From IMG/VR virus record IMGVR_UViG_3300043394_000609: a stretch of 64,000 nucleotides of DNA; one strand, given 5' to 3'. Below, one piece after another: positions 60,852 to 61,462 of the stretch. The stretch's first letter is position 1, and every line of letters begins with the position of its first letter. The position numbers and the translations under genes were made by a program. The notes beneath the pieces are model-generated. The model saw only the letters and a program-made list of their open reading frames with translations, searched no databases and had not been told where the DNA came from. The stretch is from a virus. Taxonomy: Duplodnaviria > Caudoviricetes.

Positions 60852-61220
60852 TTATATTACATTAATAAATAATTTTTCTCTTATCGGTAATATTAATTTG
60901 TTTGATGGTGTTGAATTGATGTCCATAAATTGGATAATAATTTTACCCTCATATTTACCTATTTTTTTTGTATTATCTTCATTAAAACGGTACGTTATAT
61001 AATATTCATCAGTTGTTTGATTATATTTTTTAGTCCTTGTTGTTAACATACAAGTACCATTTAATATTTCAGGTTCACCCGTTTTAACGTCTAACATTTC
61101 GAATGTTATATCGGCATTACCCAATAGATCATTAAAGGATGACTTGTCGTTTTTACCGTCATCCACCATCCTCATTTTTAAAATAGGGTCCGTTGCACCT
61201 TGTCTGATGAAAAATTCCAT
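60852..61220 (-). CDS. BppU N-terminal-like Ig-fold virion adaptor protein
   Basis: FFIRQGATDPIL...ITFEM...ITYRF...TKKIGKYEGKIII...LILP...LFINV pattern. Confidence 0.55.
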   Translation of the reverse strand: MEFFIRQGATDPILKMRMVDDGKNDKSSFNDLLGNADITFEMLDVKTGEPEILNGTCMLTTRTKKYNQTTDEYYITYRFNEDNTKKIGKYEGKIIIQFMDINSTPSNKLILPIREKLFINVI

Positions 61221-61462
61221 TACTTAATTGTTAAAATAAATTGGTTACCTGATTTAATCGGTGCTGTTTCACCTTCTTTCAATTCACTAGACATATAAAA
61301 GAATTGTTCTTTTACAATTTCGTGTGGAAATTTAATTTCTTCTTTAACCGCACTCTTAATGTTTTCAATTGTTAACGGTTCGTCAACATTGAATGTCTTA
61401 CGGTATCTTTTTATTTTTTCTTCGTTCTTAACGATTAAAACTTCTAAATTAAATGATTTCAT
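61220..61462 (-). CDS. Ubiquitin-like (beta-grasp) protein lacking C-terminal GG
   Basis: TFNVDEPLTIENIKSAVKEEIKFP..FFY....LKEGET..IKSGNQFILTIK versus ubiquitin [24 protein letters not shown]..LIF....LEDGRT..IQKESTLHLVLR. Confidence 0.6.
   Translation of the reverse strand: MKSFNLEVLIVKNEEKIKRYRKTFNVDEPLTIENIKSAVKEEIKFPHEIVKEQFFYMSSELKEGETAPIKSGNQFILTIK

Follow-up and report, generated by a model that had tools for sequence, protein, structure and literature searches.

A predicted ubiquitin-fold protein inherited with a tandem beta-propeller gene in a clade of uncultured jumbo myophages

Introduction

Tail-fibre accessory proteins and chaperones, such as gp38 of phage T4 and the Tfa proteins of phages Mu, P2 and lambda, are encoded just 3' of the fibre gene, and a constant N-terminal module placed on swappable bodies is the pattern of attachment domains in tail fibres and other displayed virion proteins. 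In eukaryotes, ubiquitin is recognised by WD40 propellers, and in known ubiquitin-like protein (Ubl) systems the C-terminal tail is the main handle for the adenylation site of E1. Tail assembly protein I of phage lambda (gpI, TAPI family) carries a ubiquitin-like beta-grasp domain and is encoded in the tail locus beside the host-specificity gene (PMC1779556), and the protein is a tail-tip component present in three copies (PMC11101478). On the side of host defence, the Bil system conjugates a host Ubl onto the phage tail fibre (bioRxiv 10.1101/2023.09.04.556158).

Here we analyse a gene for an 80-aa protein (61220–61462, minus strand) in a 64,000-nucleotide stretch of Caudoviricetes DNA (IMG/VR record IMGVR_UViG_3300043394_000609, the whole of which is referred to as the window). 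The product has a predicted beta-grasp (ubiquitin-like) fold and no C-terminal tail or Gly-Gly, and is called the Ubl below. Like lambda gpI, it would place a beta-grasp Ubl in a phage tail locus. In gpI, however, the Ubl is the N-terminal part of a longer protein and is followed by a conserved C-terminal Gly, a Gly-rich linker and the TAPI-C domain, whereas here it makes up a single 80-aa domain that ends in Lys. Moreover, gpI is paired with the JAB/NlpC peptidase gpK, whereas no Prok-JAB domain was found in the related genomes and the genes on either side encode a tandem propeller and a 122-aa protein. A central fibre of the gpJ type does not lie next door, the predicted partner being a myophage tandem propeller, and no sequence relationship to gpI was detected with Pfam.

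The likeness to T4 gp38 and the Tfa proteins is one of arrangement, namely a small gene directly 3' of a large putative host-interaction gene, inherited and diverging with it, with binding being a prediction in the present case. The beta-grasp fold is unrelated to theirs, however, with no homology in Pfam or PHROGs, and the client is a propeller rather than a trimeric fibre tip. Eukaryotic ubiquitin and Ubls share the same fold and strand order, and the window Ubl is likewise predicted to dock on a propeller, but it is without LRGG, its sequence match is below threshold and no E1 or JAB was found in the related phage genomes. BilA is also a beta-grasp protein connected with phage tail-fibre biology; it is host-encoded, however, and conjugated through its C-terminus by the E1 and E2 of its own operon, whereas the present protein is phage-encoded and non-conjugatable, with no such enzymes nearby and no PADLOC match. 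By any test that we ran, the Bil system is unrelated to it.

Results

Gene family and predicted fold

The gene was recognised as an ORF at 61220–61462 that starts with ATG, encodes 80 residues, begins 36 nt 3' of a 693-aa ORF and ends in a stop codon overlapping the next ATG by one base (TAATG). A word-indexed search returned 12 clusters of close relatives (78–100% identity) on contigs of up to 305 kb, the length of the relatives being given as exactly 80 aa for these 12 clusters and elsewhere as 80–84 aa. When 1.8 billion representatives were searched exhaustively with a profile, ~9 further relatives of 80–84 aa came to light, down to ~28% identity. Pairwise dN/dS was mostly 0.2–0.6, and the ORF is a real, conserved gene under moderate constraint. 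No family was recognised for it, or for the 122-aa protein, in Pfam, PHROGs or NCBIfam, and tblastn with the Ubl gave chance-level matches only (E ≥ 0.1); the Ubl constitutes a new small family that is confined to one phage clade. Two apparent fused long forms, P0016 (MucBP-like repeats) and P0023 (Listeria-Bacteroides-type repeats), were rejected as repeat-sum artefacts that gather ~6–11 bits per repeat, and both dropped out once a broader Ubl profile was used. There are thus no fused Ubl forms at the depth of the exhaustive profile search.

The AF2 model of the Ubl, for which the input was a 12-sequence alignment, has a pLDDT of 90.2 and a pTM of 0.78 and presents the order strand-strand-helix-strand-strand-strand. 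Foldseek against the PDB placed ubiquitin chains on top (E 1.1e-3, TM 0.54–0.60, ~18% identity). The best 50 matches in VIA-align were all beta-grasp, the first being kindlin F0 (Z 8.6, rmsd 2.4 Å, 77 aligned residues), with superantigen C-domains, FUBI and the HOIL-1L UBL also among the neighbours and MoaD structures mid-list (Z 6.3). Structural neighbours in the ESM Atlas were the phage cluster to which the protein itself belongs, followed by Ub-RnfH and ubiquitin-family clusters, and language-model neighbours were Ubl clusters with scores of 0.80–0.85, which are lead-level. The check with AlphaFold and Foldseek that an earlier note on this DNA had suggested therefore returned a predicted beta-grasp fold with ubiquitin-like neighbours, and the 80-aa protein very probably has this fold, a reading that comes from predicted structure and not from sequence.

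At the sequence level, that note had aligned the protein with human ubiquitin over the core and had called it eukaryote-like. The alignment itself was recovered by hhalign, with Ubl residues 21–68 on ubiquitin residues 12–57 at 24% identity, but with a probability of 6% it is not significant alone. The top PDB profile match was polyubiquitin at E 0.07, or E 0.78 with a broader profile. Matches to PF00240 were sub-threshold in 5 of 13 Ubl members (best E 0.0077), and Pfam gave no PF00240 match in the window's own 80-aa protein. Patterns akin to Ubl motifs are present in the family, one opening the helix (T-[IV]-x-x-[IVLM]-K) and one following strand 3 ([ED]-L-K-[DE]). As the sequence match to ubiquitin is sub-threshold, the eukaryote-like label is not established, and an origin by horizontal transfer of eukaryotic ubiquitin was dropped because none of the sequence searches matched ubiquitin significantly; there is no sign that the Ubl came from eukaryotes.

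The upstream propeller protein and its N-terminal module

The 693-aa ORF (61499–63580, minus strand) is the invariable upstream neighbour of the Ubl gene, and its product is the predicted partner of the Ubl. This product models as a tandem beta-propeller, with an AF2 model (pLDDT 89) that is all-beta from residue ~70 on and with double propellers as its Foldseek matches in the PDB (LRP6 E3E4, tricorn and Utp21; E ~1e-10). Two uncharacterised proteins of uncultured phages in BFVD match the model globally (TM 0.73–0.78), and homologues form more than 187 clusters, all of ~700 aa. No catalytic family was recognised in the propeller, and tblastn with it gave no matches.

The first ~70 residues (63371–63580, minus strand) form a separate module that we regard as a putative virion-docking anchor on the basis of conservation, the AF2 model and the IMG/VR loci. 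Residues 1–66 are the most conserved of the protein, with a column conservation of 0.87–0.90 versus 0.43–0.69 elsewhere, and the module follows the pattern ...NLSGKTA.VTF.P.TG...IPFNNI..PYG.Y. The N-terminus is nearly invariant yet not modelled (pLDDT <50 for residues 1–48). The same ~70-residue module tops other bodies, without the propeller, in 17 IMG/VR loci, and these bodies are LCIB-like, lectin-like and others. The module-bearing proteins comprise LCIB_C_CA-like proteins of 357–363 aa, proteins of 743–748 aa with phrog_15511 repeats, a 574-aa protein with Laminin_G_3 and F5/8-type-C domains that also matches PHROG virion and tail families, and a short form of 159 aa. In some loci 2–3 module-bearing paralogues occur together, and module-headed genes in the relatives (loci numbered with L) lie at L040:3992–5083; L046:3992–5065; L054:4001–6232 and 6242–7966; and L035:1592–3292, 3986–4465 and 4531–6612. 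The module is a probable shared docking domain, although a tag for packaging or for capsid decoration is an alternative.

The fusion of the N-terminal module to LCIB_C_CA (beta-carbonic-anhydrase-like; Pfam E ~1e-27) was observed in related jumbo phages at L040:3992–5083, L041:4001–5092, L043:3906–4997, L046:3992–5065 and L050:3992–5065. The fusion gene adjoins the polymerase gene polB directly upstream and occupies the place of the propeller and Ubl pair. It possibly encodes a virion-associated carbonic-anhydrase-like protein, which is unexpected.

Genomic linkage and joint divergence

A survey of gene neighbourhoods in related phages, as the earlier note had proposed, was carried out by running a Ubl HMM on all ORFs of 56 related loci that had been gathered with the propeller alignment in a scan of IMG/VR; these loci are not all independent, several being duplicate copies of one phage. 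The Ubl gene always lies directly 3' of the propeller gene, at a distance of 12–43 nt, in the loci with a propeller body and downstream DNA (35 of 35, several of them duplicates), and it is missing from all 17 loci that retain no more than the ~70-aa N-terminal module, there joined to a different body (0/17). Among whole records, G001–G003 hold exactly one Ubl gene and one propeller gene each, adjacent to one another, and G004 (272 kb, 91% complete) holds neither.

The two proteins also diverge together, with overall ranges of 36–80% identity for the Ubl and 42–68% for the propeller. Propeller/Ubl identities across five genomes are 68/78, 51/56, 44/45, 42/39 and 62/80%, while the 122-aa gene, polB and gp13 hold at 67–85% identity across the same five genomes, and the Ubl and propeller genes are thus one fast-evolving cassette in a conserved backbone. 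In all 35 loci the Ubl gene stands where a fibre-accessory gene would stand, 3' of its putative client gene, with which it is inherited and diverges. A single recombination cassette, and not physical contact, could in part account for the adjacency and joint divergence.

C-terminus, conjugation enzymes and defence models

Members of the Ubl family stop right after the last strand, at ...[ILV]-x-[IVF]-K, with no tail or glycine. The terminus of the window Ubl is ...LTIK, without an equivalent of LRGG, and K80 is the invariant last residue across members, so that the description of the protein in the earlier note as a ubiquitin fold without diglycine holds, the beta-grasp fold being that of the AF2 prediction. 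The features of ThiS/MoaD sulphur carriers were not found either, as the Ubl has no Gly-Gly and the related records no ThiF. A search for conjugation enzymes, which covered ThiF/E1 (PF00899) and Prok-JAB (PF14464), found neither of the two in 4 related phage records (2 of them ≥90% complete). A PADLOC scan of 12 Ubl members gave no match to a defence-system Ubl model and a weak PDC-M24A match in 2 of the 12 (E 0.006); the PADLOC models date from 2023, which makes this a limited test of defence-Ubl membership.

These results bear on the suggestion of the earlier note that the protein is a decoy, in which a late, tail-less and non-conjugatable Ubl would occupy host E1, E2 or DUB enzymes and thereby inhibit Bil or the Cap2/Cap3 enzymes of CBASS. 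A beta-grasp fold without a conjugatable C-terminus would suit such a role, as would synthesis together with fibre-like proteins, since Bil targets the phage tail fibre (bioRxiv 10.1101/2023.09.04.556158). Several findings speak against it, however: no defence Ubl was matched in PADLOC, the protein offers no C-terminal tail for E1, its family is confined to one phage clade, and its presence or absence strictly follows that of one structural-type phage gene, with which it diverges in step. A decoy that needs no phage partner is expected to occur independently of the propeller, and the strict co-occurrence counts against it. We found nothing that specifically favours a decoy and consider it extremely improbable; as the Ubl always travels with the propeller gene, it is most likely a dedicated partner of the propeller protein.

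Predicted complex of the Ubl and the propeller

Co-folding of the Ubl with the propeller gave ipSAE values of 0.76, 0.81 and 0.00 in three runs (median 0.76), and the best of three controls was 0.00. In the calibration of the tool, 58 solved complexes out of 80 and 2 mismatched pairs out of 110 attained this mark, counts that are approximate here because the alignments were our own. The runs share at least 0% of their contacts, i.e. they disagree, and the pLDDT of the partner is 65 or more. The best run has Ubl residues 1–25 (beta1-beta2), 57–59 and 69–72 touching the propeller, and the contacts on the propeller recur every ~45–50 residues between positions 120 and 468, which suggests one loop per blade, i.e. 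a seat on the axial face or in the inter-propeller cleft. The tightest contacts in this run place the conserved KSG loop of the Ubl on the conserved DIEWD of the propeller (residues 203–207), and towards its periphery the interface varies on both proteins.

Interface conservation on the propeller was 0.53 versus 0.62 elsewhere in the protein, a level equalled or exceeded by 98.6% of random residue sets, and that on the Ubl was 0.54 versus 0.62. As the interface is no more conserved than the rest, conservation gives the docking no independent support; the low values fit a co-varying interface and, equally, an arbitrary docking. As a prediction, the co-fold lends tentative support to binding of the Ubl to the propeller.

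Predicted contacts on one loop per blade would be typical of the ligand face of a propeller and could also be read in another way, with the propeller as an enzyme or lectin, either virion-delivered or intracellular, and not as a fibre, and with the Ubl as an inhibitory cap or immunity-like regulator on its ligand face. The N-terminal module carries the enzyme-like LCIB_C_CA body in relatives (E 1e-27), which means that it does not carry adhesins only. We nevertheless judge an enzyme or lectin capped in this way to be unlikely, given that no catalytic family was recognised in the propeller and that the surrounding genes are lectin-like and collagen-like fibre genes. There is a very slim chance that the Ubl caps the ligand face of a displayed propeller and can be removed from it, perhaps shielding the propeller from fibre-tagging or fibre-sensing defences of the Bil type; this would be structural counter-defence and not a soluble decoy.

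The 122-aa downstream neighbour

Downstream of the Ubl gene lies that of the 122-aa protein (60852–61220, minus strand), recognised as an ORF with relatives and highly conserved, which is joined to the Ubl gene by the TAATG overlap. The translational coupling claimed in the earlier note agrees with this one-base overlap, which 23 of the 33 related loci with downstream sequence retain; in the remaining loci the place of the 122-aa gene is taken by unrelated genes, including collagen-like fibres. The description of the protein as BppU-like fared less well: Pfam gave no BppU_N (PF10651) match at E up to 1, and one look-alike cluster in the ESM Atlas has BppU_N in 12% of its members. The 122-aa protein is possibly a BppU_N-like Ig domain, which should be taken as a lead only.

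The kept TAATG overlap implies co-translation of the Ubl and the 122-aa protein, and the two could form a small baseplate adaptor pair that is independent of the propeller. The surface of the Ubl off the predicted propeller interface is conserved (T31, K36, K40, P46, E48, E52, L61 and K62) and could bind a conserved partner such as this one. However, each gene occurs without the other among the related loci, the 122-aa gene being present without the Ubl in L054 and L056, and the Ubl without the 122-aa gene in L002, L003/L004, L007, L014, L024, L028, L029, L031 and L035. The 122-aa gene is thus not obligately linked to the Ubl, and the two diverge at unrelated rates (67–81% identity versus 35–80% for the Ubl). 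We regard a pairing with the 122-aa protein as having a poor chance of being right.

Two further observations concern this gene. One database protein of 73 aa (P0017) consists of the first ~41 residues of the 122-aa protein and the last ~32 residues of the Ubl, which means either that the assembly is chimeric or that the TAATG junction has undergone a natural deletion or rearrangement. Proteins of 190–332 aa encoded upstream of the N-module gene (L040:3223–3945, L041:3395–3967, L043:2877–3875 and L046:3249–3935) have a start that by eye resembles the N-terminus of the 122-aa protein (MEF[FY]I[KR]...P.LK...DG.[SN]D...), and to judge by this pattern the latter may be the minimal form of a longer family.

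Transcription unit and phage context

Both boundaries that the earlier note had given for a late unit, a motif at 63600 and a terminator near 60800, were found, which makes that description a reasonable one. The first is a late-promoter-like TATTTATA at 63600–63607 (minus strand), ~20 nt 5' of the ATG of the propeller gene and common to the tape-measure, tube and other late-strand genes. The second is a strong, GC-rich, intrinsic-terminator-like hairpin at 60824–60803 (minus strand), with a stem of 9 bp and 4 GC pairs followed by a T-run, which falls after the 122-aa gene and closes the unit ahead of polB. The total of TATTTATA in the window is at chance level (15 found versus 16.7 expected), but the coding strand carries 14 of the 15. 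A gene start follows within ~40 nt in at least 8 cases, among them the tape-measure, tube and large unannotated late-strand genes, and the sheath and gp13 genes are preceded by variants of TATTTATA. The 15 sites include those at 1353, 4259, 15487, 23275, 46254, 48266, 49824 and 63600 (minus strand). TATTTATA is similar to the late TATAAATA of T4, and we regard it as a candidate late promoter in the phages of this clade.

The start codon of a tail gene or another late-strand gene lies 10–40 nt 3' of most TATTTATA copies. The 5' leader of polB also contains, at 60733–60749 (plus strand), a perfect 7-bp hairpin without a T-run (TTACGGA / TCCGTAA), placed between the upstream terminator and the polB start.

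Neighbouring genes in the window encode a family-B DNA polymerase, a T4 gp13-like neck protein, an SNF2 helicase and the tail sheath. Relatives are IMG/VR and metagenome contigs of 120–330 kb; at the DNA level, no similarity to GenBank phages and no matching cultured relative was found. The source phage is an uncultured jumbo myophage of 32% GC. Variable genes near the module in relatives carry Laminin_G_3, F5/8-type-C and collagen-like tail-fibre domains. A second group of neighbours was observed adjoining the module in several relatives, consisting of proteins that start with M(A/S)..PIS(Q/L)LP (L028:6338–8035, L031:6326–7840, L007:581–853, L054:7996–8619 and L035:3322–3957). Some of these run into collagen-like GTS repeats and match PHROG tail-fibre families, and they look like a second family of fibre genes with a common N-terminus at the same locus.

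Discussion

Taken together, we think it probable, though by no means assured, that the Ubl is a cognate accessory subunit, or a chaperone or cap, of a virion-displayed propeller protein. The earlier note had offered a beta-grasp structural or chaperone subunit as its alternative, and this is the part of its interpretation that we favour, with the upstream propeller as the partner in place of the coupled 122-aa gene. Virion display of the propeller is something that we infer from context, as we do the choice between subunit and chaperone. The fibre-like reading is based on a late motif held in common with the tape-measure and tube genes, on neighbours with fibre domains, on the shared N-terminal module and on the setting in a jumbo myophage with a sheath and a gp13-like neck.

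In the proposed mechanism, late transcription of the propeller and Ubl genes would start at the TATTTATA-type promoter, and the unit would close at the terminator that precedes polB. The ~70-residue N-terminal module would dock the propeller to the particle, on which the propeller would be displayed as a fibre-like host-interaction protein. The Ubl would bind the propeller, either as a stoichiometric accessory subunit or in a dedicated role as assembly chaperone or cap. The surface facing the loops of successive propeller blades would consist of its beta1-beta2 sheet, which is variable, together with the YMS and KSG loops, which are conserved, and the Ubl would sit on the axial face or in the inter-propeller cleft.

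A tandem beta-propeller and a stand-alone ubiquitin-fold protein, both as predicted, thus form a two-gene module that has been unannotated until now and that occupies a hypervariable locus for host interaction in uncultured jumbo myophages (~200–330 kb, 32% GC) belonging to a widespread clade. A new anti-defence mechanism is unsupported by the finding. Should the pair be a receptor-binding unit, the Ubl would bring a fold class that is new to fibre accessory proteins or chaperones, and its co-expression would be needed to produce or retarget propeller proteins of this kind. After lambda gpI, it would be a second independent case in which a ubiquitin-like domain has been recruited to phage tail biology without conjugation chemistry.
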